Assembly: GCA_965221185.1 (NCBI GenBank)
Contig: OZ244866.1
Coordinates: 2,469,838 to 2,533,837, forward strand
Length of the DNA: 64,000 nt
Source of the DNA: Candidatus Aldehydirespirator sp.
GTDB lineage: Bacteria; Actinomycetota; Acidimicrobiia; Acidimicrobiales; Aldehydirespiratoraceae
Reading direction: 5' to 3'
Shown in pieces: positions 15,357-58,892 of the stretch. A program made the position numbers and the translations under genes. The notes under the pieces are model-generated. The model did no database searches and was not told where the DNA came from. It saw only the letters and a list, made by a program, of their open reading frames with translations. The first letter of the stretch is position 1; each line of letters opens with the position of its first letter.

Positions 15357-15460
15357 GCATTTACATGATTTTTCAAACCAACTGAACGTTCACCACTCTA
15401 CTCCAGCCGATCAGCGCCGCGAGACCGGTAGGCGCACTTGCCAGCGCGTACTGTCGGGGC

Positions 15461-16830: not shown

Positions 16831-17010
16831 GTCTGGTGGGCGGTGCGGTCATTGTCGACTGCTGCCAAACGACAGTGCGGGCGCAGCCCTCCCAGCCGTG
16901 GTGATGTCCCCTCTGACAGCAGCCGGAACCGATTGGCGGTTTGACCGCTCAGTCCTGGCGCGGCCCGAGCGGTCCGGTCGCGAAAGGTCGCTCTGGCATA
17001 ATGTCCGGAA

Positions 17011-19881: not shown

Positions 19882-20147
19882 GTTGCGCTCGCCATGGTCG
19901 AGCAGCCAATCTGGCGGCTCTGTTCGAGCCGACCCGATCCTCGGTCGGTGCCTCAGTGAGTTCACGGCGGAATTCTGCCGTACGATCAGCGCATCTCGAT
20001 GGACCCCGAGCACGGATCGCCGTCCGGCACCCCCGCGAGGATCACAGTGGTGATGAATCCGTGAGCCGGTCAATCGCCGGGACTAGCTTCGACGATGTGG
20101 CAGACACCGCCGCAGGGCGCCCGACAGCCGCTTCGCGGGACTGAGTC

Positions 20148-33702: not shown

Positions 33703-33788
33703 TCATACTCTGAAGTGGTGGCCGGCCCGCATCGGGACTCGCAGGATTCCGAGAGCCCCGATGCGCCGGTGAAGGGAGGCGCACCGAC

Positions 33789-36233
33789 GTGACGACGATC
33801 CAGGACCGCCTGACCACCGTCGCCGATGCGCCGCCGGCTGCGTCAGCGCCGACGACCATGCGAGTGCGCAAGCGCAACGGCAACCTCGAGCCAGTCGACG
33901 TGAACAAGATCGTCAACGCGGTGGCCCGGGCCGCCGAGGGACTGCTGGGCATCGATCCCCTGACGGTCAGCACCCGCACCATCGCGGCCCTCGCCGACGG
34001 GGCCACCACCCGCGAGCTCGACGAGCTGAGCATCCGCACCGCGGCCGGGCTCATCGTGGAGGAGCCCAACTACTCCAAGCTCGCGGCCCGCATGCTGGCC
34101 ACCTACATCGACAAGGAGGTCCGCAACCAGAACATCCCCTGGTTCTCCGAGGCGATAGAGACCGGCCACCGGCTCGGGCTGATCGGCGACGACACCGCAG
34201 AGTTCGTGCGAGCCCACTCCCCCGGCCTCAACGCGGCCATCGACTCGGGCCGGGACCGCAACTTCGAGTTCTTCGGCCTCCGAACCGTCTACGACCGCTA
34301 CCTGCTGCGCCACCCTGAAACCCGCCGCGTGATCGAGACCCCGCAGCACTTCATGCTGCGAGTGGCCTGCGGGCTGAGCACCGACCCCGAAGAGGCCATC
34401 GCGTTCTACGACCTGATCTCGTCGCTGGCCTACCTGCCGTCGAGCCCGACGCTGTTCAACTCGGGCACGATGCATCCGCAGATGTCGAGTTGCTACCTGC
34501 TCGACTCCCCCGTGGACTCCCTCGAGGGCATCTATCAGCGCTACACCGACATCGCCCGGCTCTCGAAATACGCGGGCGGCATCGGCGTGGGATGGCACCG
34601 GGTCCGCTCCAAGGGATCGCTCATCAAGGGCACCAACGGGCTGTCCAACGGCATCGTGCCATGGATCAAGACCCTCGACTCGTCGGTGGCCGCGGTCAAC
34701 CAGGGCGGCCGGCGCAAGGGCGCGGCCTGCGTGTACCTGGAGTCCTGGCACGCGGACATCGAGCAGTTCCTCGAGATGCGCGACAACACCGGCGACCACG
34801 CCCGGCGCACCCACAACATCAACCTGGCCAACTGGGTGCCCGACCTGTTCATGGAGCGGGTGGAGAAGGACTGGCAGTGGAGCCTGTTCGACCCCAAGAA
34901 GGTGCCCGAGCTCACAGACACCTACGGCGACGAGTTCCGGACCATCTACGAGCAAGCCGAAGCCGACGGCCGCTTCGAGCGCCAGGTGCCGGCCCGCCAG
35001 CTCTACACCCGGATGATGCGAACCCTGGCCGAGACCGGCAACGGCTGGATGACGTTCAAGGACGCCTCCAACGCCAAGTGCAACCAGACCGGGCCCGGAC
35101 CGGCGGGCGACACCAACGCCCGAGACCGGGTGGTGCACCTATCGAACCTGTGCACCGAGATCATCGAAGTGACCAGCGACGCCGAGACCGCGGTCTGCAA
35201 CCTCGGGTCGGTCAACCTCGGCGCGTTCGTTCACCGAACTACGGCAACCTCCAACGGCAGCGCCCCGACCGGATTCGACTTCGAGCGGCTCGGCGAGGTG
35301 GTCCGGCTGGTGGTCGGCTTCCTCGACCGTGTAATCGACATCAACTACTACCCGACCAGCGAGTCCCAGGCCTCCAACCGGCGCTGGCGCCCGGTGGGCC
35401 TGGGCCTCATGGGCCTTCAGGACGTGTTCTTCAAGCTGGGCCTGGCCTTCGACTCCGCCGAGGCCCGATCCCTCAGCCGCCGCATCTCCGAGGAGATCTA
35501 CTTCAACGCCCTCTGGGCCTCCACGGAGCTCGCCGAGGCCAGCGGGTCCCACCCCGGCTTCTCCGACACCCGGGCCGCGGCCGGCGATCTGCAGTTCGAC
35601 CTCTGGGGGGCCGAGCCGTCCGACCCCGAGCGCTGGACGCCGCTGCGGGCGCGAGTCGCAAAGCACGGGCTGCGCAACTCTCTGCTGATCGCGATCGCAC
35701 CGACGGCCACCATCGCCGCCATCGCCGGCTGCTACGAGTGCATCGAGCCCCAGGTGTCGAACCTGTTCAAGCGCGAGACCCTCTCGGGCGAGTTCATGCA
35801 GGTGAACCGCTACCTCGTGGCCGAGCTGAAGGCCAGAGGACTGTGGGACGACAAGATGATCGCCGACGTCAAGAAGGCGGAAGGCTCGATCCAACAGATC
35901 GAGCGCATCCCCGAGGATCTTCGAGCCATGTATCGCACCGCGTGGGAGATCCCGCAGCGCTCGCTCATCGAGATGGCCGCCGATCGGGGCGCCTTCATCG
36001 ACCAGAGCCAGTCGCTCAACCTGTTCATCGAGGCCCCGACCATCGGGAAGCTGTCGTCTATGTACATGCACGCGTGGAAGCAGGGCCTCAAGACCACCTA
36101 CTACCTGCGGTCGAGGCCAGCGACGCGGATCAACCAGACCACCACCAACGGCAACGGCACCTCCCCCACCGACGCGGAGGCCGCGGTGGCCTGCTCCTTG
36201 GAAAATCCTGAGACCTGCGAGGCATGCGACTGA
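33789..36233 (+). CDS. nrdA: class I ribonucleoside-diphosphate reductase alpha subunit with N-terminal ATP-cone
   Basis: GAAGGGAGG RBS before GTG 33789. ATP-cone (RVRKRNGNLEPVDVNKIVNAV), catalytic regions (NLCTEI, PTATIA) and a C-terminal Cys pair (ETCEAC). Confidence 0.9.
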   Translation: MTTIQDRLTTVADAPPAASAPTTMRVRKRNGNLEPVDVNKIVNAVARAAEGLLGIDPLTVSTRTIAALADGATTRELDELSIRTAAGLIVEEPNYSKLAARMLATYIDKEVRNQNIPWFSEAIETGHRLGLIGDDTAEFVRAHSPGLNAAIDSGRDRNFEFFGLRTVYDRYLLRHPETRRVIETPQHFMLRVACGLSTDPEEAIAFYDLISSLAYLPSSPTLFNSGTMHPQMSSCYLLDSPVDSLEGIYQRYTDIARLSKYAGGIGVGWHRVRSKGSLIKGTNGLSNGIVPWIKTLDSSVAAVNQGGRRKGAACVYLESWHADIEQFLEMRDNTGDHARRTHNINLANWVPDLFMERVEKDWQWSLFDPKKVPELTDTYGDEFRTIYEQAEADGRFERQVPARQLYTRMMRTLAETGNGWMTFKDASNAKCNQTGPGPAGDTNARDRVVHLSNLCTEIIEVTSDAETAVCNLGSVNLGAFVHRTTATSNGSAPTGFDFERLGEVVRLVVGFLDRVIDINYYPTSESQASNRRWRPVGLGLMGLQDVFFKLGLAFDSAEARSLSRRISEEIYFNALWASTELAEASGSHPGFSDTRAAAGDLQFDLWGAEPSDPERWTPLRARVAKHGLRNSLLIAIAPTATIAAIAGCYECIEPQVSNLFKRETLSGEFMQVNRYLVAELKARGLWDDKMIADVKKAEGSIQQIERIPEDLRAMYRTAWEIPQRSLIEMAADRGAFIDQSQSLNLFIEAPTIGKLSSMYMHAWKQGLKTTYYLRSRPATRINQTTTNGNGTSPTDAEAAVACSLENPETCEACD

Positions 36234-39527: not shown

Positions 39528-39580
39528 CTGCCCTCCCCGCTGGTGCCGATCCTCCGCGTGATCAGCCATCCACTCCCCAC

Positions 39581-39700
39581 AGCCGGTTTCTGTGAGCAGA
39601 GGTGCCGACTAGAGCGGCTTCGTTGCACAGAATTCTCCGTAGCCGGTTTCTGTTAGGAGCGGTGCCGACTGAAGCGGCTTCGTTGCACAGATTTCGTCCA
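39581..39700. repeat. 2 x 60-bp tandem direct repeat upstream of the aldehyde dehydrogenase gene
   Basis: agccggtttctgt(g/t)ag(c/g)ag(a/c)ggtgccgact(a/g)(g/a)agcggcttcgttgcacag(a/-)atttc... at 39581-39640 and again at 39641-39700. The track ORFs covering it look spurious. Confidence 0.9.
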
Positions 39701-40646: not shown

Positions 40647-40807
40647 TCATGACCTCCCAGCGTCGCGTGGCGGTGTGCGATCTCGGCGGCGGGCCAGCGG
40701 TTCCCACGGCGGTCTCATCGCGCCGAAGGTAGCTGCGATCCCCAGCGCGAGGAGCGCGTGGATGGAGCCCCGGCCCAGACCGTCGATCAGGTTCTGCAGC
40801 AGTTCGA

Positions 40808-41599: not shown

Positions 41600-41615
41600 C
41601 GTTTGGTAGCAAACG
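41600..41615. promoter_or_regulatory. palindrome upstream of the MarR gene (candidate operator)
   Basis: CGTTTG-gtag-CAAACG ends 16 nt before GTG 41632. It lies in the divergent livF/marR intergenic region. Confidence 0.4.
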
Positions 41616-41631: not shown

Positions 41632-42135
41632 GTGCAGAATCGAGCCGATCCGCGCCTGCTCGACGCTGAGCGCCTCATCCAGGAGCGCCTCGGCGACCGG
41701 CACCTCGACTTCGACTCGATGCTGGCCGTGTCCAACATCTACCGGGCCGCGACCGCGGTGCGCCGCCGGGCCGAGCGGGCCGTGCTGTCCGAGTTCGGCC
41801 TTTCCTGGGGCGGTTTCACCACCTTGTGGGTGCTGTGGGTGTGGGGGGAGATGCAGACAGCGGACCTAGCGGACGAGTGCGACCTGTCCAAGGGCACGCT
41901 GACCGGCGTGGTCAAGACGTTGGAGAAGCGCGGGTTCGTGGAGCGCACACCGGTGGAGTCGGATCGCCGTCGGGTGACGGTCTCACTGACCGACGCCGGC
42001 CTCGACACGATCGAGCGGCTCTTCCCCCGCTTCAACCTCTACGAGGGCGAGATGGTGGGTGAACTGTCGACGACCGAGAAGCAGGAACTGGCAGAACTGC
42101 TTCGCCGGGTGATCGTCACAGCCGGCGAGGAGTGA
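41632..42135 (+). CDS. MarR-family transcriptional regulator
   Basis: Winged-helix region (TADLADECDLSKGTLTGVVKTLEKRGFVERTPVESDRRRVTVSLT). Confidence 0.85.
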   Translation: MQNRADPRLLDAERLIQERLGDRHLDFDSMLAVSNIYRAATAVRRRAERAVLSEFGLSWGGFTTLWVLWVWGEMQTADLADECDLSKGTLTGVVKTLEKRGFVERTPVESDRRRVTVSLTDAGLDTIERLFPRFNLYEGEMVGELSTTEKQELAELLRRVIVTAGEE

Positions 42136-42168: not shown

Positions 42169-42489
42169 CTACACCATGCTGGTGACAGAACCCCCACCGA
42201 TGGCGACGAGACCGACGGAGTTGAGCCCGCCTATCGCGACCAGACCCACCGAGTTGATGCCGCCGATCGATACGAGACCGATCGAGTTGATGCCCCCTAT
42301 CGCGATCAGACCCATGGAGTTCAAGCCGCCGAGCGTGACGATGCCCATCGCATTCAGGAGGCTCAACGCGCCGATTCCCACCGCATTCAGGCGTCCGGCG
42401 GCCGCGACGCCGATCGCGGACCAGCGACTCATGGCAACGATGCCGACCCCGCAATACTCGGACGTGGCTTCATCAGACACTTCTGGCAC
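42169..42489 (-). CDS. small hydrophobic Gly/Asn repeat protein (six 11-residue repeats)
   Basis: GTG 42489. Residues 32-97 (nt 42199-42396) are GRLNAVGIGAL-SLLNAMGIVTL-GGLNSMGLIAI-GGINSIGLVSI-GGINSVGLVAI-GGLNSVGLVAI. The nucleotide units diverge at synonymous sites and third-position GC is high, which favours this frame over the two overlapping track ORFs. Confidence 0.55.
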   Translation of the reverse strand: MPEVSDEATSEYCGVGIVAMSRWSAIGVAAAGRLNAVGIGALSLLNAMGIVTLGGLNSMGLIAIGGINSIGLVSIGGINSVGLVAIGGLNSVGLVAIGGGSVTSMV

Positions 42490-42533: not shown

Positions 42534-43469
42534 TCAAGCGCCGCAGCGTTCACAGTAGTCGACCATGCGGCGACAGATGCCGGCCACCTCCCGGATGTCG
42601 TCGGTGTACTGCGACGGCTTCATGCAGAACAGGGAATAGCCCGCGGCGACCTGCTCGTCGATGGCGGCCATGGCGTCGTCGACGTCGGCGACGGCATCGG
42701 GGGAGGCGAACGTGGCCCGGGTGCCCCCGATCAGCTCAATCTCAGAAATGTCGCGCCCCGCGACGGCCAGACCCTCGGCCAGCTCGGCGAGGTCGTCGGC
42801 GGTGGGCGTGCCGAAGGGATGGAAGCCGCTGCCGTAGCGGACCATGCGCCGGATGAGCGCCGGGTGCATCCACTCGCCCCCGAACCACATGCGGGGCCCC
42901 GTCGGCCGCCAGGCCTTGGGCTCGCAATATGCATCCTCGAAGCTGAAGTACCGGCCCGAGAAGCTGGCGGGCGACCCGGCCCACAGCCGCGACATGGCCT
43001 CAAGGTGCTCATCGAGGATGCGGCCCCGCTCAGAGAACGCCACGCCGTGGGCCTCGTACTCGGCCTGCTGCCACGACACGGTGGGTTGCACCACCAGCCG
43101 GCCCTCGCACAGCAGATCGATGGTGGCCAGGTCCTTGGCCAGCAGGATGGGATGGCGCAGCGAGGGGATGATGGCTCCCGCTACCACTCGCACCCTGCTG
43201 GTGGCCGCCGCCACCGCGGCCAGGGTGGCCACCGAGCTGGGCCACGGCGTCATCGGGTCCTGGTTGCCGACGGCCGCGTACATCCGGGGATTGCTCATGA
43301 GGCCCTCGATGGCAGCGTCGGGGCCGAGCATGGTCTGCTCGCTCACCATCACAGCGTCGAACCCGCTGTCCTCGGCAATCCTGGCCAGATCCACCAGGCC
43401 CCGCATGTCGCGCGGATCCAGCATCGTGTGGTTCTCGGTCAGGATCATCAGCATCCCCGGCGCGGCCAT
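42534..43469 (-). CDS. LLM-class F420/flavin-dependent oxidoreductase
   Basis: ATG 43469 (MAAPGMLMILTENH...) was chosen by alignment with the paralogue at 56453..57409 (MAPPRLLLILTENH...). Confidence 0.85.
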   Translation of the reverse strand: MAAPGMLMILTENHTMLDPRDMRGLVDLARIAEDSGFDAVMVSEQTMLGPDAAIEGLMSNPRMYAAVGNQDPMTPWPSSVATLAAVAAATSRVRVVAGAIIPSLRHPILLAKDLATIDLLCEGRLVVQPTVSWQQAEYEAHGVAFSERGRILDEHLEAMSRLWAGSPASFSGRYFSFEDAYCEPKAWRPTGPRMWFGGEWMHPALIRRMVRYGSGFHPFGTPTADDLAELAEGLAVAGRDISEIELIGGTRATFASPDAVADVDDAMAAIDEQVAAGYSLFCMKPSQYTDDIREVAGICRRMVDYCERCGA

Positions 43470-43565
43470 GTCAGCGCTCGGCGGCAGATTCGGCACAATG
43501 CGTGGTTGGCCGCCTCACCTCAGCGCTCCGCAGACTCGGCGCCGTGCGCAGCTAGCGGCCTCACG

Positions 43566-44324
43566 TCAGCGCTGCACCATGTCGAAGGGTCCCAGAGCCA
43601 CTGCGCCGCCGTCGAGGCGGAACGACGCTCCGGTGGCGAAACGGCCTGCCGGAGCCACCAGATAGTGGACCAGCGCGGCGATCTCGTCGGGCTCGCCGGC
43701 CCGGCCCGCGATGTTCACGGAGATGCCGGCCGTGGACAGCTCACGGATCGCGTCTGCTGCCATGGGCGTGTCCACAATGCCTGGGTCGACCTGCGTGACC
43801 CGGATGCCGTCGGCCCGCCACTCCTTGGCCAGCGCCACCGTGACCGCGGCCAGCCCAGCCTTGGTCGCCCCGTAGACGGCGCCGCCCGCCGAGGGCCGCA
43901 CCGCGTCCACCGAGCCGATCATCACCACGGCCGAGTCATCGCCCGCGGCCAGGTACGGCTGGGCAAGCTGGCAGAGCCGGAGAGGCGCCCAAAGGTTGAG
44001 CCCGACCAGCCCGTCGAAGTATTCGCGGTTCAGCTGGTCGAGGGGGAGCCAGTCGCCCCGCCCCGCATTGTTCACCAGTATGTCGAGCCCCCCCAGCTCG
44101 GCGACGGCCACGTCGATCACCCCATCGACAGCCTCGGCGTCGCTCAGGTCAGCTACGAGGGGACGCACCGAGCCCCCCGCCTCCGGCACGCGCCCCGACC
44201 GCGAGACCGCAACCACGTTGGCACCTGCACCGGCCAGACGGGCGGCGATGGCCGCCCCGATCCCAGCCGACGCACCGGTGACCACGGCGCGTCTGCCGGT
44301 CAGGTCGAACGCAGCATCAGGCAC
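43566..44324 (-). CDS. short-chain dehydrogenase/reductase (SDR)
   Basis: VTGASAGIGAAIA cofactor motif and YGATKAG catalytic motif. Confidence 0.85.
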   Translation of the reverse strand: MPDAAFDLTGRRAVVTGASAGIGAAIAARLAGAGANVVAVSRSGRVPEAGGSVRPLVADLSDAEAVDGVIDVAVAELGGLDILVNNAGRGDWLPLDQLNREYFDGLVGLNLWAPLRLCQLAQPYLAAGDDSAVVMIGSVDAVRPSAGGAVYGATKAGLAAVTVALAKEWRADGIRVTQVDPGIVDTPMAADAIRELSTAGISVNIAGRAGEPDEIAALVHYLVAPAGRFATGASFRLDGGAVALGPFDMVQR

Positions 44325-44354
44325 GGTGCCACGATAATCACCCGTGCCCCGCCC

Positions 44355-44383
44355 TTGATCGTTCGGTGCCTAACGATTAGAGT
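44355..44383 (+). promoter_or_regulatory. putative promoter with embedded inverted repeat (copy 1 of a duplicated module)
   Basis: TTGATC (44355-44360), 17 nt, then TAGAGT (44378-44383), then 6 nt to GTG 44390. Inverted repeat ATCGTT-N8-AACGAT at 44358-44377. The first 16 nt are identical to 51766-51781. Confidence 0.5.
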
Positions 44384-44389
44384 TCGGGC

Positions 44390-44509
44390 GTGGCGGAGCT
44401 CCAAGGGTTCATGCATCCCCGGACCCACTGCCGGAAGGTGTTCGCAGCTGGCGACCCCGAGGATTCGGGGGCGATCGACTGCACCAGGCTGTGCTCGTGC
44501 GGTCGGTGA
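44390..44509 (+). other. 39-codon leaderless upstream ORF / relic of an acetoacetate decarboxylase-family N-terminus
   Basis: It begins VAELQGFMHPRT, compared with MAELQGFMYPRT at the ADC-family gene (51801). Its TGA (44507-44509) overlaps the in-frame GTG 44506 of the LuxR ORF (GTGA). Confidence 0.35.
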
Positions 44510-45213
44510 CGGACGTCGCCCGCTTCGTCGGCTCCGTGGCCGCGGCCGCGACTTCGGCGGCACCGGCCCAGGACCGCATCGAGGCCATCGTCGACGAGAT
44601 AGGCCAAGTGCTCCCGTTCCTCGGCATGTGCATCAACTCAGCCCCGGACTCGAACGGGCGCAGCGGGATCGTCTGCAGCCGCGACTACCCCGACACGGTT
44701 CTCGCCTGGCTGGGAAGCAGACACTTTCTCGCTGAGTGGCAGGGGCTCAGGCCGTCACCACGGGGAACCCGACTCCGGGAGACATTGGAACTCGATCCGC
44801 TGCCCGCCACAGTCAGTGACTACATCGTGCCGCTCGGCTTCGGCGGCGGCGTCTCCGTGCCCCTGTGCTCCGCGGCGGGCGAAGTTCTCGGGGGCATGCA
44901 CTTCTCGACCGAGTCCGCCGACGACATCACCGACCTGGCCCACGACGGCCTCTGCCTGATTGCTCCGGCGGTCAAGAACCTGGTCCAGTCGCTGCCTCGG
45001 CCCATCGAGAAGACTCCTCTGAGCCCGCGAGAGGTCGAGGTTCTGGAACTAATAGCTCGTGGCAAGTCGAACGCTGACATAGCAGCCGACCTCTTCATCG
45101 CCCAGCGAACGGCGGCAACCCACATCGAGCACATCCTCTCCAAGCTCGGCGCAGCGAACCGGGCCCAGGCCGCCGTGCTGGGCGTGCAACTCCAGCTGAT
45201 AGCGGCCAACTAG
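44491..45213 (+). CDS. LuxR-family transcriptional regulator (GAF-like N-domain plus C-terminal HTH)
   Basis: C-terminal LuxR HTH (LSPREVEVLELIARGKSNADIAADLFIAQRTAATHIEHILSKLG). The start is uncertain: GTG 44491, 44497 or 44506. Confidence 0.8.
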   Translation: MLVRSVTDVARFVGSVAAAATSAAPAQDRIEAIVDEIGQVLPFLGMCINSAPDSNGRSGIVCSRDYPDTVLAWLGSRHFLAEWQGLRPSPRGTRLRETLELDPLPATVSDYIVPLGFGGGVSVPLCSAAGEVLGGMHFSTESADDITDLAHDGLCLIAPAVKNLVQSLPRPIEKTPLSPREVEVLELIARGKSNADIAADLFIAQRTAATHIEHILSKLGAANRAQAAVLGVQLQLIAAN

Positions 45214-45218
45214 CCGCC

Positions 45219-45938
45219 TCACCCGGCGGCCGGGTCTGTTCCTGCACCCAAGTATGCGCGCTGCAGGACTGTCGGATCCTCGACCAAGACGTCGGCGCGC
45301 TCGCGCAGGACGGTCTCCCCGCGCACCAGCACCATCACCACATCGGCCACGCCGAGAGCGACCGACGTGAACTGCTCCACAAGCAGCACCGCCGTTCCGG
45401 ACCGAGCTGCTTCCTTGACCACAGCGGTCAGGCGTCGTACGACCGTCGGAGCAAGACCGAGGGATATCTCGTCGATCAGCAGGCACGATGGTCGGGCAAT
45501 GAGCGCCCGGGCCAGTACCAGCATCTGCTGCTCCCCTCCCGAGAGCTCTCTGGCTCGCGTGTGTGACCTCGCCCGCAACTCAGGGAACATCTCGTAGGCG
45601 CGATCGGTGTCGTGCGCCGCGACCCGCAAGTTCTCCTCGACGGAGAGCTCAGCAAAGACGGCCCGACCCTGGCGCACGTGCCCGAGGCCGAGACGGTTGC
45701 GTCGCCGGCGCGACGCCCTAGTGATGTCGGAATCGTGCAACGCGACCGAGCCCCCCTCGACCTTGACGACGCCTGAGACGGCCTCGAGCATCGACGTCTT
45801 GCCAGAACCGTTGGGACCCACGATCGCCATCACTTCAGCGGCGCTGACATCAAGCGACACTCCGCGCACCACCGGCACGCCGCCACGGGCCACGACCAAG
45901 CCGCGCACAGCAAGGACCGGTTGCTTCGCAGGGCTCAC
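45219..45938 (-). CDS. livF: branched-chain amino acid-type ABC transporter ATP-binding protein
   Basis: Walker A GPNGSGKTS, signature LSGGEQQML, Walker B LLIDEISLGL. Confidence 0.9.
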   Translation of the reverse strand: MSPAKQPVLAVRGLVVARGGVPVVRGVSLDVSAAEVMAIVGPNGSGKTSMLEAVSGVVKVEGGSVALHDSDITRASRRRRNRLGLGHVRQGRAVFAELSVEENLRVAAHDTDRAYEMFPELRARSHTRARELSGGEQQMLVLARALIARPSCLLIDEISLGLAPTVVRRLTAVVKEAARSGTAVLLVEQFTSVALGVADVVMVLVRGETVLRERADVLVEDPTVLQRAYLGAGTDPAAG

Positions 45939-47629
45939 GGGGCCTCGTCCTCCACCCCCAGATAGGAAGCCATCACCTGTCGGTCAGCCAGCGTTCGCTG
46001 GGTCGGACCGGCCGCTATGACCGCACCCCGGTCGAGAACGACAAGTGACTGGCAGACCTGCCGCACGAGCCGGAGGTCGTGCTCTATGAGCACTATTCCG
46101 ACGCTCCACTCGCTCGCGACGATCCGAAGGGCCCTTCCGAGACGACCGGACTCCTCATCAGTGAGGCCGGCCGCGGGCTCGTCGATCAGAGCCACCGACG
46201 GCGCGGCGCTGAAGGCGGCCACCAGTTCCAGGCGACGGCGCTCGGCGCTGTCGAGCTGCGCTATCGGCGTGGCCGCAGCGGGCAAGTCGAAGAGCGCGAG
46301 CAGCCAGTCCCTCTGTGTGGCCGATGTTCGTTCGCGCCCGGTCACGGCAAGGAAGTGACCTACCGAGAGGTTCGTCGGCGTCCGCTCCCGCTGGAACGTG
46401 CGCGACAGCCCTGCCTGGACCCGGCGATGAACCGGCAGTGCGGCCAGCGGGACATGCCCCAAGCTCACGCGTCCGCCGCTGATCGGCACGTATCCCGTCA
46501 CCGCGTCGACGAAGGTCGACTTCCCGGCTCCATTGGGCCCGATCAGTCCCATCACCTCGCCCGGCCTCACCTCAGCCGACACCCGGTCGACGGCTCGTAC
46601 CGACCCGTAGTCCACGGTGAGATCCTCGACCAACAACGGAAGCCGGCGCGCGGACGGCGGTGGGCAATGGCCAACAACGCGCCTAGCCCGTGGCCGCTCG
46701 CCTCCCCGGCGGCTGAATCTTGCGGCCAGAGCGAGCCACTGTCCGGCGATGCCGCCCCCGCCCTGGCTCAGCACCTGCGCCGCCCCGACGGCGAAGATCA
46801 TCGGCCCGATGTCCTGGGACCAGCCCAACACCCGCAGGATCTCTGGCATCCACGACGACAGCGCCCCGGCCAGCGCAGCGCCCAGCGCGCTCGTTGATCC
46901 GGCCATAACCGCCAGCGCGAACATGACCAGCGAATCGAAAGGCTCTAGCTGGCGGGCCGACAGTCGTCCGATCTGAATGGAGAGAAGCCCTCCGGCTATG
47001 CCCGCGACGAAGGCACTGGCCGCGAACGCGGTGAGCTTGGTGACAACGACAGAATGTCCTGCGGCCGCAGTCGCCCGCTCCGATTGCCCGACCAGAGCCC
47101 ACATGGACCCAGCCGTCCGCCGCCGCACCAGACGCAGACCCAACTCGATGAGCACCGCAACGACCAGCGTGAACCACAGGAAGCGCACCTCGGACGCCGC
47201 AAACCGGGGGCGGGGCACCGCGAAGTTCGTACGGGCCCCAGGAAAGCCGCGGTTGAACACCGCAACCTGGATCGCGGCCGCAAATCCGAGGGTCACCACC
47301 GCGAGGTCCACGCCGCGCAGGCGCAGGGCGGGAAGGCCCACCACAACGCCCACGGGAACTGCGGCGAGGCCACCCAAAAGCAGGGCCGCCTCAACCGGAA
47401 CTCCGGAGTTCAGCGTGAGCCACCCGACTGTCCAACCCCCGACGCCGGCCAGGCTCACCTGGCAGAGTGACACCATTCGCGTGTCCGCGTAAAGGAACCC
47501 GACGGAGCGAGCGATGACAGCGGTGATGATCGCGCCGGTCGCGAGGAATAGGCGGAAGTCGCTCAGGGATGAGACCGCGACACCAGCCAGGATCGCGACG
47601 AGCGCGAAGCGAGCATCAGCGCGCGTCAT
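45935..47629 (-). CDS. fused LivM-type permease / LivG-type ATPase
   Basis: ATG 47629 overlaps the livH end by 14 nt. The N-terminal half is a multi-TM permease. The C-terminal half carries GPNGAGKSTF and IDEPAAGL. Confidence 0.85.
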   Translation of the reverse strand: MTRADARFALVAILAGVAVSSLSDFRLFLATGAIITAVIARSVGFLYADTRMVSLCQVSLAGVGGWTVGWLTLNSGVPVEAALLLGGLAAVPVGVVVGLPALRLRGVDLAVVTLGFAAAIQVAVFNRGFPGARTNFAVPRPRFAASEVRFLWFTLVVAVLIELGLRLVRRRTAGSMWALVGQSERATAAAGHSVVVTKLTAFAASAFVAGIAGGLLSIQIGRLSARQLEPFDSLVMFALAVMAGSTSALGAALAGALSSWMPEILRVLGWSQDIGPMIFAVGAAQVLSQGGGGIAGQWLALAARFSRRGGERPRARRVVGHCPPPSARRLPLLVEDLTVDYGSVRAVDRVSAEVRPGEVMGLIGPNGAGKSTFVDAVTGYVPISGGRVSLGHVPLAALPVHRRVQAGLSRTFQRERTPTNLSVGHFLAVTGRERTSATQRDWLLALFDLPAAATPIAQLDSAERRRLELVAAFSAAPSVALIDEPAAGLTDEESGRLGRALRIVASEWSVGIVLIEHDLRLVRQVCQSLVVLDRGAVIAAGPTQRTLADRQVMASYLGVEDEAP

Positions 47630-48473
47630 CCCACACCTCCGCCCGGCGCTGCCAGAGCAGCAGCGCCAGGATGAACAGGAACGGGATCGTGCCGCGGTAG
47701 CGGCTGATGCTTGAGAACCGCCCGGAGTACGCCTCCAGGAAGGCAATGAAGAACCCCGTACCCAAGGTGGGCCATACCCGTGAGAATCGACCCGCGAGGC
47801 CCGCGGCTAGGCCCGGTAGCAACAGGAACACCAACGGCGCGAAGGCGGCCGGCCTGCTGGGGCCAACAAGAATGGCGCCGAGCGCTGCGACTGCCCCGGA
47901 CACTCCCCACACGGTCACCGTCAATCCGCCGACCGGCACGCCGTCCAGTTCGGCGGTCACGGAGTCCTCGGCCATGGCACGCAGGCGGATGCCGACACGG
48001 GTCCGGTGCAGGACCAGGCTTGCAGCCGTGGCAATGGCCAGGGCAAGAATCACCGCCATCATCGTGTCGTAGGTGACTCGCACGCCGGCGAGCTCCTCGA
48101 AGCGCCCCGAGAAGAACGGGCGAGCCGCCCGCGGCTTGTCGCCGAAGACTCTGAACCCAGCGGCCAGCAGGCCCAGCAGGACCGCGATGGCGACGGTGCT
48201 CCTTGTCAGCCGCTCACTGTCGCGGAACCACGACGCGAACACCGCTCCCATCGCCACGCCGATCGCGGCGCCCAAGGCCACGGCCGCGATGGCGGCAGGG
48301 ACGATGGCGGTGCCTGCCTCGACCAGCGCGAGCATCGTGAACGCGCTGAGCGCGCCGACGGCGGTGATGGCGAAGTTGAGCGTGCCCGTCATGCGATACA
48401 TGAGCACGATGCACACGCCGAACAACGCGTAGGCCGCGCCCGAACTCAGCGACGCCGCCAGCGAGCGGATCAT
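47616..48473 (-). CDS. livH: LivH-type ABC transporter permease
   Basis: 285-aa hydrophobic protein with a LivH-like N-terminus (GAAYALFGVCIVLMYRMTGTLNFA). Confidence 0.85.
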   Translation of the reverse strand: MIRSLAASLSSGAAYALFGVCIVLMYRMTGTLNFAITAVGALSAFTMLALVEAGTAIVPAAIAAVALGAAIGVAMGAVFASWFRDSERLTRSTVAIAVLLGLLAAGFRVFGDKPRAARPFFSGRFEELAGVRVTYDTMMAVILALAIATAASLVLHRTRVGIRLRAMAEDSVTAELDGVPVGGLTVTVWGVSGAVAALGAILVGPSRPAAFAPLVFLLLPGLAAGLAGRFSRVWPTLGTGFFIAFLEAYSGRFSSISRYRGTIPFLFILALLLWQRRAEVWDDAR

Positions 48474-48509
48474 GGCCCGGTGGTCCGGCTGCGGCCCCTC
48501 AGGCCGTCA

Positions 48510-49913
48510 TCATGGAACGACGATCCACCCCGGCGTCTTGACCACCCAGGCGCCGTCGACAAGCTCGACGAACTTCGCGGCGCGATTCGATCCATGGGCA
48601 TCACCCTCACCGAACTCGTAGGGAGTCCCGCTGAGGCCGGTGTCGACGGGCTCAAGCCCGAGCAGGGCCGCGGCCACCGATTCCCGGGTGATCTCGCCTT
48701 CGATCCCCTCCAAGACGCCAACCATGATCGTTGCCGCCAGGTAGCCGCCCTCGGCGAAGGATGTCTGGGGCACGCCGGCCTCGTTCATCAGCGCCCGCCA
48801 GTCGCTCAGCACAGCGCTGTCCAAGTCGGTGAAAGGCTCGAACTCCGACGCCAGCACGAGGCCGTTGCCGGTTGCGCCCAGCTGCTCGGCCACGGCCGCC
48901 GTGTATCCCGAGGTGAGCCCGATGATCTGCACGTCGAGGCCTTGGGCCTCACGGAGCTGCATCATCGCCACGTAGTGGAAGTCGTTGGCCTGCACGACGG
49001 CTGCGTCGCAGCCGTTGCTCTCGAGCTCGAGCATGAAGGGCGTCAGGTCGCCGTCGAAGATCAGCGTCGTGTCGCCGTACGCCAGTTCCTTGCCGGTGGC
49101 CGCGGTCCATTCGGCTATGGCCGCTTCGTACGCGGGCTGAAAATCAGGGACGTTGAAGGCCCCGAAGCAGACGTTGTCGGCACCCAGTTCCTCGCTCGCG
49201 TAGAACAGGGCCACCGCATCGGAGAAGAAAGGGCCCGTGTTCACTGGCGAGATGTTTGAAGTGGCGAAACAGACCGGATCGATGCCGGTGCCCTGGATGG
49301 AGTAGAGGCCGACTTCGGCATAGAACTGGGCATTCACGGCGCACTCGAGCAGACTCGCCGATCCAACCATGGCCACGACACCCGGCTCGTCGGCGAGCCG
49401 CCGAGCAGCCTGCGCCGCGAGAGCCGGATCGAATCCGTCGTCCTCGACGATGTAGGAGATCATGCGCCCGCCAATCCCACCGGCGGCGTTGACCCGGTCG
49501 AACACAGCCTGCGCAGCCGAGTGCGATTCGGGGAACGAGGCCGGTCCGGTGAGAGTGGAGATCGCTCCGAGCCGGATCGGACCGGAGCTGGGGGCCGCGG
49601 CCGCCTCGACGACCTCCTCCGCGGGCCTTTCGGTCGTCGGAGACGGGTCCTCCACTGACGGGGCCTGTTCCTGCGTCGACGGAGCTTCCCCGCCGCCGTC
49701 GACGGAGGCGCCTTCGTCGACGGCGGTGCTGCTCGCCGGTGCCTCTTCGACGGCAGTGCTGCTCGCCGGTGCCTCTTCGACGGTGGCCGACGGCACCGGT
49801 TCGGCCGCTGGTCCTTGATCCGACTCGGAGTCGCCGCCGCACCCGGACGCGATCGCGACCAGGACGGCCAGCGGAATCGCTAGACGTTTCAGTGGGTTTG
49901 TTGTCTTGGGCAC
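48510..49913 (-). CDS. livK: LivK-type periplasmic/lipoprotein substrate-binding protein
   Basis: Lipobox (VAIASGCGG). The linker contains a 30-nt tandem repeat at 49722-49781 (VEEAPASSTA twice). A type I periplasmic binding fold follows. Confidence 0.85.
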   Translation of the reverse strand: MPKTTNPLKRLAIPLAVLVAIASGCGGDSESDQGPAAEPVPSATVEEAPASSTAVEEAPASSTAVDEGASVDGGGEAPSTQEQAPSVEDPSPTTERPAEEVVEAAAAPSSGPIRLGAISTLTGPASFPESHSAAQAVFDRVNAAGGIGGRMISYIVEDDGFDPALAAQAARRLADEPGVVAMVGSASLLECAVNAQFYAEVGLYSIQGTGIDPVCFATSNISPVNTGPFFSDAVALFYASEELGADNVCFGAFNVPDFQPAYEAAIAEWTAATGKELAYGDTTLIFDGDLTPFMLELESNGCDAAVVQANDFHYVAMMQLREAQGLDVQIIGLTSGYTAAVAEQLGATGNGLVLASEFEPFTDLDSAVLSDWRALMNEAGVPQTSFAEGGYLAATIMVGVLEGIEGEITRESVAAALLGLEPVDTGLSGTPYEFGEGDAHGSNRAAKFVELVDGAWVVKTPGWIVVP

Positions 49914-49940: not shown

Positions 49941-51653
49941 CTAGGTCAGGGGGCTCCCGTTCTTAGGGAATTCACCGAAGACCAGTTGCCCGTCCACGAC
50001 GGTCGCGGCGATCGGGGTCTTGGCGATCTGATGCTCGTCCGTGCCGAGGAGTCGGCCATCCAGGACGCAGTAGTCGGCGGCCATTCCCGGCACCAGGCTG
50101 CCTTTCCATCCCTCCGCCCCGTCCTGCCATGCGCCGTTGACGGTGAATGTCCGGATCGCCTCCAGGACCGATATGCGCTCCTCGGGTCCGTGAACCTCGC
50201 CACTGGCCTTGGACTCGCGGAGAACCGCGGTCTCGACGCCCTGACGCCAACTCGGGAAGGTGATCGGCGCGTCCGAGCTCGATGTGACCGGCACGCCAGC
50301 ATCCAGCGCGGACCGCATCGGCCACTGGTAGTCGGCCCGCTCCTTGCCGATCATCTCCCTCATGAGGTCGGCGATGGTCCACTTGATGGCCGGCTGCATG
50401 CTCGCGCCGAACCCGTGGACCGCCAGGAGGTTCAGTGCTTTCGCGCTGGCAAGGTCGGCGTGGATCACATAGTGCCTGGGATCAGGACGGGGACTGCGGT
50501 TCTGGGCTCTCACCAGGGAGGCGATCGTCGCGTCGATGGCGCGGTCACCGGTCACGTGAACGCCGATCTGATGGCCCGCGCCGTGGCCGAGCTCGATCAT
50601 GGCTTCAAGATCCGCGAGCCGTTCATCGTCGGTCTCGCCGGCGACCGTGAGACAACCGCAGCCGCCTCCCACATACTGCTGCGTCAACCAGCCCGTCTTG
50701 TTCGGTGGGACCCCGTCAGCGAAGAACTTGATGCCGGCGACACGGAACCAGCCGGGCTTCTCCGGCGGTGGCATGAAGGAGTCCAGATGCTGGGTCACGT
50801 CATTGAGACTCGATGTGGTGGGCGGACTGAAGGCCAGCAGCACCGTCGTGCGGAGGGCGAAATCCTCCCGGCCGGCCCGCTCGCCCAGCCGCTGCAGGAA
50901 GCGCTCCCCGGCAGCCCCTCCCTCGAATGCGTTCCCGCCCGGGCCGAGCGCCGCGTCGGTGACCGAGGTGATGCCTTCGGCATGCACGATCTCGCGGACC
51001 GTGTCCAGCGCTTGATCGAGCTCCATGTCCGTCAGAGGTGGCACGATCCGGTCGATCATGGCGCCCGCCGCTTCGCGTAGTAGGCCCGTCGGTCGCCGGC
51101 TTCGGTTCCTGACGATCACACCGCCGGTTGGATCCGGGGTGTCCTCATGGATGCCCGCCAGCTCAAGCGCCCTGCTGTTGACCCAGAGCTGGTGTCCGGA
51201 GAAGTCGCGCAGCGCGACGGGTACATCGGCGCTGGCCGCGTCGAGGTCGTCTCGATTCGGGAGGCGTCCCGGATGGGCGTCCTGGAGGTAGCCGATGTCC
51301 CATCCAGTCCCCTTCACCCATCCGTTGACCGGTCGGGCAGACCCAACCGCGTCGATCACGTCCGCGATGGACCTGACCGCGGGGAATCCGACGTCCACTG
51401 CGAGCGGAGGACGCACCGCGCCGAAGTAGCCGATGTGCATGTGGGAGTCGTTGATGCCGGGCACAACGGTCCGCCCGTCCAGGTCGACAACCTCGGTGCG
51501 CGGTCCGGCCAGGGAGGTGACGTCGTCGTTTCGACCGACTGCGCACACGCGGCTGCCGCGCACGGCCATGGCCTCGACGACGTTGTCGCCGCATGCAGTC
51601 ACGATCTGCCCGTGCCGAAGAATCCGGTCGGGTGCGTCCAGGTCGCGAGCCAT
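49941..51653 (-). CDS. metal-dependent amidohydrolase (YtcJ-like)
   Basis: ATG 51653 gives MARDLDAPDRILRHGQIV.... HxH motif (GINDSHMH). The upstream 338 codons of track ORF 49941..52667 are antisense to the ADC-family gene. Confidence 0.85.
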   Translation of the reverse strand: MARDLDAPDRILRHGQIVTACGDNVVEAMAVRGSRVCAVGRNDDVTSLAGPRTEVVDLDGRTVVPGINDSHMHIGYFGAVRPPLAVDVGFPAVRSIADVIDAVGSARPVNGWVKGTGWDIGYLQDAHPGRLPNRDDLDAASADVPVALRDFSGHQLWVNSRALELAGIHEDTPDPTGGVIVRNRSRRPTGLLREAAGAMIDRIVPPLTDMELDQALDTVREIVHAEGITSVTDAALGPGGNAFEGGAAGERFLQRLGERAGREDFALRTTVLLAFSPPTTSSLNDVTQHLDSFMPPPEKPGWFRVAGIKFFADGVPPNKTGWLTQQYVGGGCGCLTVAGETDDERLADLEAMIELGHGAGHQIGVHVTGDRAIDATIASLVRAQNRSPRPDPRHYVIHADLASAKALNLLAVHGFGASMQPAIKWTIADLMREMIGKERADYQWPMRSALDAGVPVTSSSDAPITFPSWRQGVETAVLRESKASGEVHGPEERISVLEAIRTFTVNGAWQDGAEGWKGSLVPGMAADYCVLDGRLLGTDEHQIAKTPIAATVVDGQLVFGEFPKNGSPLT

Positions 51654-51765
51654 GAGGCGATTGAAGCAAGCGGCGAGGCTCGCGCCAATCGGCAGATCTA
51701 CCGATTCTTGGCTGATCACGTCCCCATCTCTGCGGTATGTCTGGCCGACGAAGTCGATTTGCCCG

Positions 51766-51794
51766 TTGATCGTTCGGTGCCAAACAATTATGCT
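51766..51794 (+). promoter_or_regulatory. putative promoter/operator (copy 2 of the duplicated module)
   Basis: TTGATC (51766-51771), 17 nt, then TATGCT (51789-51794), then 6 nt to ATG 51801. The inverted repeat is degenerate here (ATCGTT-N8-AACAAT). Confidence 0.5.
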
Positions 51795-51800
51795 CGGAGC

Positions 51801-52619
51801 ATGGCCGAGCTCCAGGGGTTCATGTACCCGCGGACGCCCACCGGGATCGCAGGCATCGTGCCAGCACCCCCCTGGCACTACTCCGGTGAAATGCTCACCG
51901 TCGAGTACCGCACCGACCCGGACCGGGTGGCCGAGCTGCTTCCCGATCCCCTGGAGCCGGCCCCGGACGACCCGGGCGCGGTGGCCATGATCTGGGCCGA
52001 GTGGCAGAGCTGCAGCAACACCTTCGAGGAGCTGCTCGACCCGGTGCGAGCCCAGTACCGGGAGGTGTTCGCGGTCGTGCGCTGCCGCTACCGGGGCTCC
52101 ACCTACAGCCGGGCGTCCTACATCTGGGTGGACAAGGACTTCGCCATGGCCCGGGGCCACGTGCAGGGCTACCCCAAGAAGATGGGCGAGATCGCCATGA
52201 CCAGGCCGGTGACGGTGGGCCGGGCCGGGCCCCGTCTGGAGCCTGGCGGGCGCTTCGGAGCCACCTTGAGCACCTGGGGCCGACGAATCGCCGAGGCCCA
52301 GTTCACGATTACCGGCACGGCCGAGACCCCCGGCTTCGTCAACGGTCATCCGATGCTGCACAGCCGCCAGATACCGGCCATCGAAGTCGACGGGGCCGAC
52401 TCGCTCGACGAGCTGGTCACCATGCGGGGCTACGACGCCGACCTCGGACCGGTGTACTCGGGCGACGCCGAGCTGATGCTGCCCGAGTGCCCCACCGAGG
52501 AGCTGCACGTCCTCCAGCCCGTCGAGATGATCGGCGGCTACTACCGCCAGGTCGGCATGTCCATGGCGGGGGGCACAACCCTGTGGGCCGCCCCCAACCC
52601 CAAGACCGGGAGCGAATAG
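51801..52619 (+). CDS. acetoacetate decarboxylase (ADC) family protein
   Basis: ATG 51801. N-terminus MAELQGFMYPRTPTGIAGIVPAPPWHYSGEMLTVEYRTDPDRV is typical of the ADC family. Confidence 0.8.
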   Translation: MAELQGFMYPRTPTGIAGIVPAPPWHYSGEMLTVEYRTDPDRVAELLPDPLEPAPDDPGAVAMIWAEWQSCSNTFEELLDPVRAQYREVFAVVRCRYRGSTYSRASYIWVDKDFAMARGHVQGYPKKMGEIAMTRPVTVGRAGPRLEPGGRFGATLSTWGRRIAEAQFTITGTAETPGFVNGHPMLHSRQIPAIEVDGADSLDELVTMRGYDADLGPVYSGDAELMLPECPTEELHVLQPVEMIGGYYRQVGMSMAGGTTLWAAPNPKTGSE

Positions 52620-56452: not shown

Positions 56453-57409
56453 TCAGTTGTCATCGGCCGGAGTCTCGAGGCGGGCGGCTCGGACGACGAT
56501 GTGCTCGCACAGCGCCCGGACCTCGGAGGGGTCGTCGGTGTGCTGGGAGGGCTTCACGCAGAGCGTGGTGAACCCGGCTGCGATCTGGTCCTCGAAGTCG
56601 GCCATGGCCTCGTCGATGTCGGCGGTGTCGTCGGCGCCGGCGAAGACCGCCCGAGTGCCGCCCACCATCTCGATCCCGTCTGGGTCGCGGCCCACGGCGG
56701 CCAACCCGGCCCGAAGCGCCGCCAGATCCTCAGCGCTGGCTGCGCCGAAGGGATGGAAGCCGTCCCCGTAGGACACCAACCGGCTGAGCAGCGCCGGGTG
56801 CATCGACTGGCCGCCGAACCACATCCTGGGACGGGCCGGATCGGTCCGCCACGGCTTGGGCACGCAGTAGACGTCGTCGAAGGCGAAGCGAGGGCCGGGG
56901 TGCGAGGCCGGGGTGTGCTCCCACAGCGCGGCCATGGCCGCGAGCTGCTCGTCGAGGATGTCACCCCGCTCGGCGAAGGGCACGCCGAGGGCGTGGTACT
57001 CCTCGCGGTGCCAAGAAACTGTGGGCTGCACCACCAGCCGGCCCTCGCTCAGCCGGTCCAGGGTGGCCAGCTCCTTGGCCAGTAGCACCGGATGGCGCAG
57101 CGGGGCGATCACCGCACCCATCACCAGCCGCACTCGCCGGGTTGCCGCGGCCACCGCGGCCAGCAGCACATTGGAGCTGGGCCAGGACGTGGCCGGGTCC
57201 TGGTTGCCCGGAGCGGCGTAGGCGCGGGGGTTGACGGGTCGGCCCAGGGCTCCGGCCGAGGGGCCGAGGACGACATGCTCGCTGGCCATCACCGCGTCGA
57301 ACCCTGCCGCCTCGGCGTCCGTGGCCAGGCGCACCAAGCCGACCAGGTCGTCGGGGTCGACCAGGGTGTGGTTCTCGGTGAGGATCAGCAGCAGCCGGGG
57401 TGGAGCCAT
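56453..57409 (-). CDS. LLM-class F420/flavin-dependent oxidoreductase (paralogue of 42534..43469)
   Basis: ATG 57409, 10 nt after the GS-like stop. Collinear with the 42.5-kb paralogue (LILTENHT, RLVVQPTVSW, MWFGG). Confidence 0.85.
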   Translation of the reverse strand: MAPPRLLLILTENHTLVDPDDLVGLVRLATDAEAAGFDAVMASEHVVLGPSAGALGRPVNPRAYAAPGNQDPATSWPSSNVLLAAVAAATRRVRLVMGAVIAPLRHPVLLAKELATLDRLSEGRLVVQPTVSWHREEYHALGVPFAERGDILDEQLAAMAALWEHTPASHPGPRFAFDDVYCVPKPWRTDPARPRMWFGGQSMHPALLSRLVSYGDGFHPFGAASAEDLAALRAGLAAVGRDPDGIEMVGGTRAVFAGADDTADIDEAMADFEDQIAAGFTTLCVKPSQHTDDPSEVRALCEHIVVRAARLETPADDN

Positions 57410-58778: not shown

Positions 58779-58892
58779 GGCATCTCCCGAAATCGAGTTG
58801 GAACGCTGAACGTTTGGCCCCAAACGGTAGCCCGCACCGCGGTCGGGGTCACACTGGCCGCGCCGCCCAGCCGGCGACGGCTCTCCGTGCTG

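Follow-up and report, generated by a model that had tools for sequence, protein, structure and literature searches.

A duplicated segment with a predicted promoter, operator and leaderless start codon precedes a LuxR-type regulator gene in Candidatus Aldehydirespirator

The stretch of 64,000 nucleotides (nt) from Candidatus Aldehydirespirator sp. analysed here (contig OZ244866.1, positions 2,469,838 to 2,533,837; hereafter the window) carries the gene of a LuxR-type receptor (44497-45213, + strand), composed of a ligand-binding domain and a GerE helix-turn-helix (Pfam GerE, E 2.2e-19). This gene is preceded by a short open reading frame (ORF) and by a promoter-like segment, a second copy of which lies 7.4 kb away, at the start of an ADC-family, MppR-like gene (51801-52619, + strand; 272 aa, starting with MAELQGFMYPRT). 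The ADC gene heads an operon in which the genes of a P450 and then of a LigB dioxygenase follow 3' on the + strand. Between the two copies, the LuxR-type gene is joined by Liv-type ATP-binding cassette (ABC) transporter genes (45219-49913, - strand) and by an Amidohydro_3 amidohydrolase gene (49941-51653, - strand), and the orientation of the copies around this module therefore makes them direct repeats.

The repeated segment, referred to here as the cassette, covers about 80 bp and comprises a -35 hexamer TTGATC, a palindrome of 16-20 bp, a -10 element TAnnnT, a start codon located 6 nt further on and about 12 codons of the ADC gene. In the LuxR-proximal copy, the -35-like TTGATC (44355-44360, + strand) is separated by 17 nt from the -10-like TAGAGT (44378-44383, + strand), which is followed 6 nt later by GTG 44390, just as a first-pass annotation of this DNA had read it. 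If transcription starts at G 44390, the first base of this codon, the two hexamers would occupy positions -35 to -30 and -12 to -7, respectively. The perfect inverted repeat ATCGTT-N8-AACGAT, which had been placed between them, is indeed present as a 20-bp sequence (ATCGTTCGGTGCCTAACGAT; 44358-44377, no strand assigned); its core, CGTTCG-N4-CTAACG (44360-44375), is centred at -22.5, amid the -35 and -10 hexamers, and is a predicted MarR-family operator. In one related genome (L002), the palindrome of the LuxR-proximal cassette was a perfect 9-2-9 repeat.

The parental cassette at the ADC gene (51766-51803, + strand) consists of TTGATC (51766-51771), a palindrome (51769-51788, core 51771-51786), TATGCT (51789-51794) and, after 6 nt, ATG 51801. 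Within the window, blastn aligned 44352-44424 with 51763-51835 at 82.4% identity (74 columns, E 1.8e-14), in agreement with the earlier estimate of about 80% for 44355-44425 and 51766-51840, and an ungapped 84-nt match of the two copies was 76% identical. The 16/16-nt stretch included in that estimate was recovered as the 16-mer TTGATCGTTCGGTGCC, exact at both copies and found nowhere else in the search. The resemblance extends into the coding part, since the short ORF opens with VAELQGFMHPRT and its codons 1-12 (44390-44425) are a relic of the ADC N-terminus, in line with the peptide start that had been proposed to be shared with the ADC protein. The latter protein matched Pfam ADC (E 1.1e-55) and NCBIfam MppR (224 bits, under the 380-bit cut-off); its gene ends at TAG 52617-52619, and an ATGA overlap between the ADC and P450 genes, checked in the window, was absent.

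Past about codon 15, the relic showed no significant ADC similarity, with 9 of 300 shuffles scoring equally. A truncated ADC pseudogene, or an internally deleted ADC gene, was rejected, as the rest of the relic matches ADC no better than shuffles, and truncation of an ADC gene in place was rejected as well, since outgroups with the same dehydrogenase-LuxR synteny hold no ADC remnant there. With no match beyond 12-15 codons and no remnant in the outgroups, the relic is thus a short duplicated promoter-plus-N-terminus segment; of the 'duplicated or truncated ADC gene' suggested earlier, the duplication was borne out, for a segment of about 80 bp, and the truncated gene was not. Judged from its sequence, the LuxR-proximal cassette is a duplicate of the predicted ADC promoter and operator, the start codon and about 12 codons.

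The cassette was observed directly 5' of the LuxR-type gene in the window and in 11 further genomes (L001, L002, L003, L081-L085, L106, L107 and L108), and 5' of the ADC gene at ten further loci (L001-L004, L082-L085, L091/L095 and L106). No cassette was present at the LuxR-type gene in L004, L086, L087 and L109, which are more distant relatives. Locus synteny was kept in L001-L004 and L082-L085. In a neighbour-joining tree of six concatenated proteins, the cassette-bearing genomes included formed one clade, with L004, L086 and L087 as successive outgroups. The LuxR-proximal copies themselves clustered as their own clade, separate from the ADC copies; together, the species clade and the separate copy clades point to one old duplication and no ongoing gene conversion. 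A scan of metagenomes for the cassette returned 18 matches, among which only L091 and L095 were related, the others being chance matches in unrelated DNA. LuxR orthologues were found only in metagenome-assembled genomes of Acidimicrobiia, namely Acidimicrobiaceae, 'Candidatus Aldehydirespirator' and 'Candidatus Poriferisodalis'; a literature search for 'Poriferisodalis' gave no match.

In L004, L086, L087 and L109, the LuxR start is located 6-7 nt 3' of an extended -10-like element, TGnTAnnGT; an element of this type is not present 5' of positions 44497 or 44506 in the window. This distance in the outgroups suggests that the LuxR-type gene was itself probably leaderless before the duplication. 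As a separate observation, in L001 and L002 the cassette's -10 region and the gap after it (TATGGTTCCGGCATG; L001 4640-4656) are similar to the presumed ancestral LuxR promoter of L087 (TACGGTTCCGGCCGTG; about 8976-9003), a resemblance that may be fortuitous or may record the way in which the two promoters were joined.

The leaderless-promoter geometry put forward in the first-pass annotation was kept in all LuxR-proximal copies: TAnnnT and a gap of exactly 6 nt were observed in 12 out of the 12, with variable gap letters and a start codon of either kind (seven GTG, five ATG). The TTG of the -35 hexamer and the bases after it were invariant in all 12 LuxR-proximal copies and in all ADC copies; in the latter, the gap was 6 nt, occasionally 7 nt. 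Across the window, 18 of the 3,994 ATG or GTG triplets were preceded by such an element (TANNNT-N6/7-RTG), and at least nine of these begin long coding ORFs. Leaderless-type starts include those of the dehydrogenase (44324), an ABC ATPase (41527), the ADC gene (51801) and a DUF3574 gene (55761), and leaderless starts appear to be common in this Acidimicrobiia lineage. In mycobacteria, any mRNA starting with AUG or GUG receives leaderless translation (PMC4633059). From the TAnnnT element 6 nt upstream, we infer that transcription starts at G 44390 and that the short ORF is leaderless.

This predicted leaderless ORF (44390-44509, + strand) has 39 codons from GTG 44390 and ends at TGA 44507-44509; its peptide is VAELQGFMHPRTHCRKVFAAGDPEDSGAIDCTRLCSCGR. 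The same length, with 107 nt between the short-ORF start and the LuxR start and a TGA at +10, was observed in the window, L082, L084, L085, L107 and L108, and L083 differed only by a TAA at +10. L081 has 36 codons at the same distance of 107 nt, with a TGA at +1 (forming GTGA on the LuxR start) and a second TGA at +10. Two compensating frameshifts were found in L002 and L106 (40 codons, 110 nt, TAG at +10), and a 93-nt deletion has left 9 codons in L001 and L003 (17 nt, TAG at +10). All three distances (107, 110 and 17 nt) are 2 mod 3, and there is no stop at the +10 place in the outgroups. Read in either of the other frames, the ORF would extend 68-245 codons into the LuxR-type gene or fuse with it. 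In each of the three length classes, the end of the short ORF thus coincides with the LuxR start region or lies just within it, as coupling predicts.

The peptide itself is free of purifying selection, while the frame and the end of the ORF are kept. Indeed, parsimony changes per codon position numbered 21/17/17 in the short ORF, without excess at third positions, and the summed pairwise differences per codon position were 98/95/76, versus 303/205/918 for LuxR. A small protein gene was ruled out for lack of a third-position excess in substitutions.

As for the start of the LuxR-type gene, orthologues open with M[RKQ]S at GTG 44497, which also corresponds to the presumed leaderless start in the outgroups; the family-wide start is therefore placed there, and GTG 44491 and GTG 44506 are in-frame alternatives in the window. 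The first-pass annotation had taken GTG 44506 as the coupled start, which the orthologue alignments do not bear out. It had also described a GTGA overlap of TGA 44507-44509 with this codon; the overlap is real in the window but is not a conserved feature, since codon 44506 is GTA in several of the genomes (seven of the 12 have GTG, one has TTG and four or five have GTA). Expressed as overlaps, GTGA with 44506 occurs in these seven genomes, L085 has TTGA, and the remaining four or five show GTAA or GTAG; the GTGA overlap may be usable in this genome. With respect to 44497, the short ORF overlaps by 13 nt, and GTGA on that start occurs only in L081. The Shine-Dalgarno energies 5' of the LuxR-type gene ranged from -4.9 (window) to -6.2 kcal/mol in seven genomes with a long relic, at about the 20th to 35th percentile of random windows.

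LuxR residues 4-5, compared between window positions 44491-44509, L004 10001-10015 and L086/L087 about 9001-9030, are V or L followed by T or A in all genomes with the short ORF, and P-P or P-Q in L004, L086 and L087, which have no such ORF. As LuxR codons 4-5 are precisely those that supply the stop of the short ORF, the LuxR N-terminus may have been altered together with the acquisition of the cassette.

Three further leaderless-type short ORFs of the window, all with TANNNT-N6/7-RTG starts, stop 0-3 nt from the start of the next gene. In one of 24 codons (33718-33792, + strand), the TGA and the GTG of the next, 840-codon gene overlap as GTGA; another, of 23 codons (40647-40718, - strand), ends 3 nt before ATG 40643 of an FAA-hydrolase gene; and the third, of 15 codons (20097-20144, + strand), ends 3 nt before ATG 20148. 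These abutting ORFs suggest that the organism uses a layout of leaderless, putatively coupled short ORFs repeatedly, and that such ORFs may be common in it.

We also considered that the 107-nt leader could be a structured regulatory RNA, a riboswitch or an attenuator, with the ORF being coincidental. An 11-bp stem was predicted, in which 44474-44484 pair with the LuxR start region, and, between the more distantly related genomes, the leader has changed at a somewhat lower rate than four-fold degenerate sites. However, the leader had no Rfam match at E <= 1, its folding energy was not unusual (z = -0.96), and the covariation term was positive (+0.78) and gave no support; moreover, pairing of the stem is disrupted in L081, and L001 and L003 lack it through deletion. 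We consider such an RNA very improbable. An attenuator of the type described in mycobacteria, where a leaderless short ORF encoding consecutive cysteines lies 5' of an operon (Canestrari et al., bioRxiv 10.1101/834739), bears a likeness to the present ORF, whose peptide contains four cysteines in the window. These are scattered rather than consecutive, and their number varies between genomes, with 1 to 4 in each peptide (L108 and the 9-codon variants have a single one); a polycysteine-type attenuator was ruled out, as there is no conserved cysteine run and no supported alternative RNA structure.

The inverted repeat of the cassette belongs to a small family of sites. A motif search, which the first-pass annotation had called for, was run on the 64-kb window and located four sites of the form CGTTYG-N4-CWAACG, versus 0.62 expected, a number reached in none of 100 shuffles; the sites are conserved in relatives. 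The sites begin at 41600 (5' of marR), 44360 (between the dehydrogenase gene and the short ORF with LuxR), 51771 (ADC) and 58811 (glutamine-synthetase-like gene). The first precedes the gene of a MarR-family regulator (41632-42135, + strand; Pfam MarR, E 1.7e-15), whose nearest NCBIfam models are Saro_0803, OhrR and HpaR, all under cut-off. This palindrome (CGTTTGGTAGCAAACG; 41600-41615, + strand) lies 16 nt 5' of marR and is a predicted autoregulatory site. The element located there, TCCGTTTGGTAGCAAACGAA, is near-invariant in nine aligned genomes and has 16 of 20 positions in common with the palindrome of the ADC copy; in L001-L003, the marR-upstream site has 1 mismatch.

The fourth site (CGTTTGGCCCCAAACG; 58811-58826, no strand assigned) lies 33 nt 5' of ATG 58778 of the glutamine-synthetase-like gene, on the minus strand, and a related site occupies the equivalent place in L091. 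It falls inside a longer alternative ORF from 58916, whose translation is conserved in L091; ATG 58778 opens 453 codons behind a GGGAGA Shine-Dalgarno, and the refined motif matches perfectly at 58811. This site is an uncertain candidate operator.

MarR-family repressors bind palindromic operators in their own and in target promoters. In the loci studied here, marR was found wherever the motif was, even in L095, whose fetched locus yielded no LuxR gene; the fetched flanks of L086 and L087 were devoid of both marR and the motif, and L109 had no motif and only weak MarR_2 matches. Given the motif at marR and this co-occurrence, the MarR-family protein is the likeliest binder, a putative repressor acting at -22.5, and the inverted repeat is probably a MarR-family operator and not a LuxR site. 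Its 16-bp dyad, with 6-bp half-sites and a 4-bp spacer over the core promoter, resembles operators of this family, as do its copies at the regulator and at nearby catabolic operons; unlike in the general case, one predicted operator has here been duplicated together with its promoter and start codon, and now stands at another regulator gene.

The first-pass annotation had instead assigned the inverted repeat to a LuxR-family protein, which would bind it at both copies, regulating its own gene and co-regulating the ADC operon. The LuxR-type protein is encoded by the neighbouring regulator gene, LuxR-type dimers bind dyads of 18-20 bp, and the palindrome sits within the promoter spacer. Yet this palindrome is missing at the LuxR promoter in L004 and from the whole locus in L086, L087 and L109, all of which have LuxR; L095 has it at ADC, and no LuxR gene was seen in the part of that genome that was fetched; and a close palindrome lies 5' of marR. 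With the co-occurrence failing in these genomes, LuxR as the binder of the inverted repeat is disfavoured, and we regard this assignment as improbable. Moreover, LuxR tracks another palindrome, which is tra-box-like.

This second palindrome, ATCGGCAGATCTACCGAT, is a predicted LuxR-type binding site of 18 bp (51688-51705, no strand assigned). The amidohydrolase start, ATG 51653 on the minus strand, is preceded by a TG-extended TTCAAT at -12 to -7, so that the palindrome is centred at -43.5. All 13 loci in which the amidohydrolase gene persists have this palindrome, among them L086, L087 and L109, which are without the ADC operon and the first palindrome. The AlphaFold model of the LuxR-type protein had a predicted local distance difference test score (pLDDT) of 90, and its best PDB matches were full-length CviR, RhlR, SdiA and TraR, as well as LasR and QscR. 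The two-domain fold is thus shared with TraR, whose operator, the tra box ATGTGCAGATCTGCACAT (bioRxiv 10.64898/2026.05.13.724834), is likewise an 18-bp palindrome and has the central GCAGATCT in common with the site at 51688-51705; the outer positions differ (13 of 18 identical), and the likeness concerns this palindrome, not the inverted repeat at 44358-44377. From this co-occurrence and resemblance, we infer that the LuxR-type protein activates the amidohydrolase/transporter operon from the second palindrome. None of the annotated genes of the window was recognised as encoding an acyl-homoserine-lactone synthase.

On its other side, the cassette faces a divergent short-chain dehydrogenase gene (43566-44324, - strand), which has its own -10 element TATCGT (44336-44331) 6 nt from GTG 44324 and is followed by a luciferase-like monooxygenase gene (42534-43496, - strand). 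The 65-bp intergenic region, with the operator, is common to the dehydrogenase gene and the short ORF, and CACGATAATC is kept in relatives. The cassette might therefore serve mainly this divergent operon, with LuxR using another, unrecognised promoter and transcription from the cassette into LuxR being incidental or weak. The operator lies 36-51 nt 5' of the dehydrogenase start codon, and the TATCGT-N6-GTG geometry sets the two promoters back to back. On the LuxR side, however, the -10, the 6-nt gap and the start codon are kept in 12 out of the 12 genomes, and the ancestral LuxR promoter element has been lost in the genomes with the cassette. Furthermore, restriction-modification genes split the dehydrogenase from the cassette in L002, L083 and L095, and the cassette stays with LuxR in L002 and L083. 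Such a role has, in our judgement, only a small chance of being the main one.

These restriction-modification sets or remnants occupy one spot, the dehydrogenase/cassette junction, in the three genomes: a methyltransferase and an endonuclease in L002 (7974-9775), an RE_XamI fragment in L083 (7912-8785), and a methyltransferase with two ORFs in L095 (3922-6441). The junction looks like an insertion hot spot. The 7.4-kb module of LuxR, transporter and amidohydrolase genes is lost in L095 and partly deleted in L106. In L095 (3000-7700; MKWU01000724.1), the dehydrogenase and the restriction-modification insert are followed directly by the cassette and ADC, the LuxR/transporter/amidohydrolase module being gone, which is consistent with recombination between the direct repeats or with loss during the insertion. 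In L106 (4423-5005), LuxR is retained and the transporter and amidohydrolase genes are lost.

Overall, we hold it fairly probable that a single duplication of the ADC cassette in the ancestor of the clade replaced LuxR's own leaderless promoter, and that the short ORF couples to LuxR. RNA polymerase would start at G 44390 from TTGATC-17 nt-TAGAGT, and the MarR-family repressor, encoded 2.3 kb 5', would bind the palindrome between the -35 and the -10. Besides its own gene, this repressor would control the ADC operon and the glutamine-synthetase-like operon, LuxR thereby coming under MarR control. As the transcript would begin with the inherited start codon, ribosomes would load without a leader and translate the 39-codon ORF, whose peptide sequence would be irrelevant. 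They would stop at 44507-44509, over a LuxR initiation region (GTG 44497, also 44506) devoid of a good Shine-Dalgarno, and termination-reinitiation, start unmasking or both would set the amount of LuxR. The target of LuxR would be the amidohydrolase/ABC-transporter operon, via the tra-box-like palindrome at -43.5, so that the duplication would have produced a two-tier cascade, with MarR over LuxR. Regarding the ORF, we favour the view that the act of translating it matters, via termination-reinitiation or unmasking of the LuxR start.

Several points weigh against this reading. A strict E. coli sigma-70 scan found no promoter at either copy, with 8 out of 12 consensus matches. The openness of the ORF, taken as a sign of selection, was rejected (0.84 stops expected, P(0) = 0.43). 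The absence of indels from the leader was likewise dismissed as a frame constraint, being uninformative because the 63-nt non-coding spacer between the two palindromes of the ADC promoter is also unchanged in all ingroup genomes. Conservation of the frame amounts to about two independent indel events, or about 1 in 9 by chance, and for this reason a coupling role is not proven. Coupled genes are enriched at spacings of -4, -1 and -8 (PMC12548453), and the 13-nt overlap falls outside them. In L001 and L003, a GAGGTG Shine-Dalgarno (-9.5 kcal/mol) precedes LuxR, so that independent LuxR initiation is possible there. L106 keeps LuxR and the 40-codon short ORF despite deletion of the transporter genes, the amidohydrolase and the second palindrome. 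Finally, the MarR assignment comes from co-occurrence, and regulators encoded outside the fetched flanks remain candidates.

Some of these points fit another account, in which LuxR is driven by the duplicated promoter-operator but translated independently, from 44497 or 44506; the short ORF would then be an inert by-product that arose when a leaderless start codon was copied, its frame and stop being conserved through shared ancestry and chance. The peptide is under no selection, that the ORF stays open is statistically insignificant, the frame has been challenged by only about two independent indel events, and L001 and L003 have dropped 93 nt of the relic, kept LuxR and have a good Shine-Dalgarno. 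Nevertheless, every indel preserves the frame, and the stop survives as three different codons, with GTA being unusual in its third position for a GC-rich gene. The start is kept as ATG or GTG in all 12 genomes, the Shine-Dalgarno is no better than random sequence in the seven long-relic genomes tested, the other frames read 68-245 codons into LuxR or fuse with it, and comparable short ORFs adjoin other genes in the window. An inert by-product is, in our view, less likely than the coupled reading.

A further step beyond the coupled reading can be put forward tentatively, and we regard it as rather unlikely. If LuxR was ancestrally leaderless, it would have had no ribosome-binding site, and the short ORF opened by the inherited start could have been exapted as an obligatory device for delivering ribosomes to LuxR via termination-reinitiation at its former start codon. 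If true, this exaptation would be a general evolutionary route for leaderless genes to outlast promoter replacement, and it would explain many actinobacterial leaderless short ORFs, with their meaningless peptides and fixed ends.

By analogy, the short ORF of the cassette may work like the coupled leaderless short ORFs of Mycobacterium (Shell et al. 2015, PMC4633059). In both, an ATG or GTG stands at the predicted transcript start and an unannotated short ORF is the first cistron, and in the mycobacterial class too, the peptide is not conserved, whereas the leaderless start and the linkage are. The present case differs in that it concerns uncultured Acidimicrobiia, conserves a 13-nt overlap with the family-wide start rather than an RTGA, is deduced from genomes only, and has an origin that can be traced to a neighbour's promoter and N-terminal codons. 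The 9-codon variants of L001 and L003, with a 5'-terminal ATG and a GTG start 17 nt further on behind its own GAGGTG, recall the 5'-terminal AUG on Shine-Dalgarno-led mRNAs of E. coli (PMC4965119); that work concerns E. coli, whereas the 5' ATG here would be inherited from a duplicated leaderless gene and mostly opens an ORF of 39-40 codons.

The novelty is modest and concerns the Acidimicrobiia lineage, the traceable origin of the short ORF, and a LuxR-type receptor, of the quorum-sensing type, apparently rewired under a MarR repressor. The locus would represent a phylogenetically dated rewiring by copying of a whole promoter-operator-start-codon cassette, with a leaderless upstream ORF as a side effect. 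Origins of leaderless upstream ORFs are rarely traceable, and the 39-, 36-, 40- and 9-codon variants form a natural mutational series. Moreover, the layout of leaderless, putatively coupled short ORFs would be extended from mycobacteria to uncultured marine and sponge-associated Acidimicrobiia, and the annotation of the locus is corrected with regard to the likely regulator-operator pairs and the LuxR start codon.

Other repeated sequences were observed in the window. The luciferase-like monooxygenase gene (42586-43469) has a paralogue 13.9 kb 3' (56520-57409; 72-78% nucleotide identity), whose operon is preceded by a site of the CGTTYG-N4-CWAACG-type motif. Two paralogous genes of about 165 codons are 82% identical over 300 nt (15446-15745 and 16996-17295), and both have TANNNT-N6/7-RTG starts (15461 and 17011). 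A 78-codon ORF with a leaderless-type start (9286-9522, + strand; peptide VRTTVSIRDETYEEARRIAFESRRTLGAVINELLAEGLKQ) appeared, by eye, to be ribbon-helix-helix antitoxin-like. In-frame tandem repeats were found in apparent coding regions at 22842-23003 (18 nt, 7 copies), 27587-27985 (about 87 nt, 5 copies; one frame acidic and Ala/Glu-rich) and 42193-42324 (33 nt, 4 copies). Finally, tandem duplications of about 60 nt were observed at 7801-7922 (77%) and at 39574-39693 (85%), the latter between an aldehyde dehydrogenase gene and the FAA-hydrolase gene.

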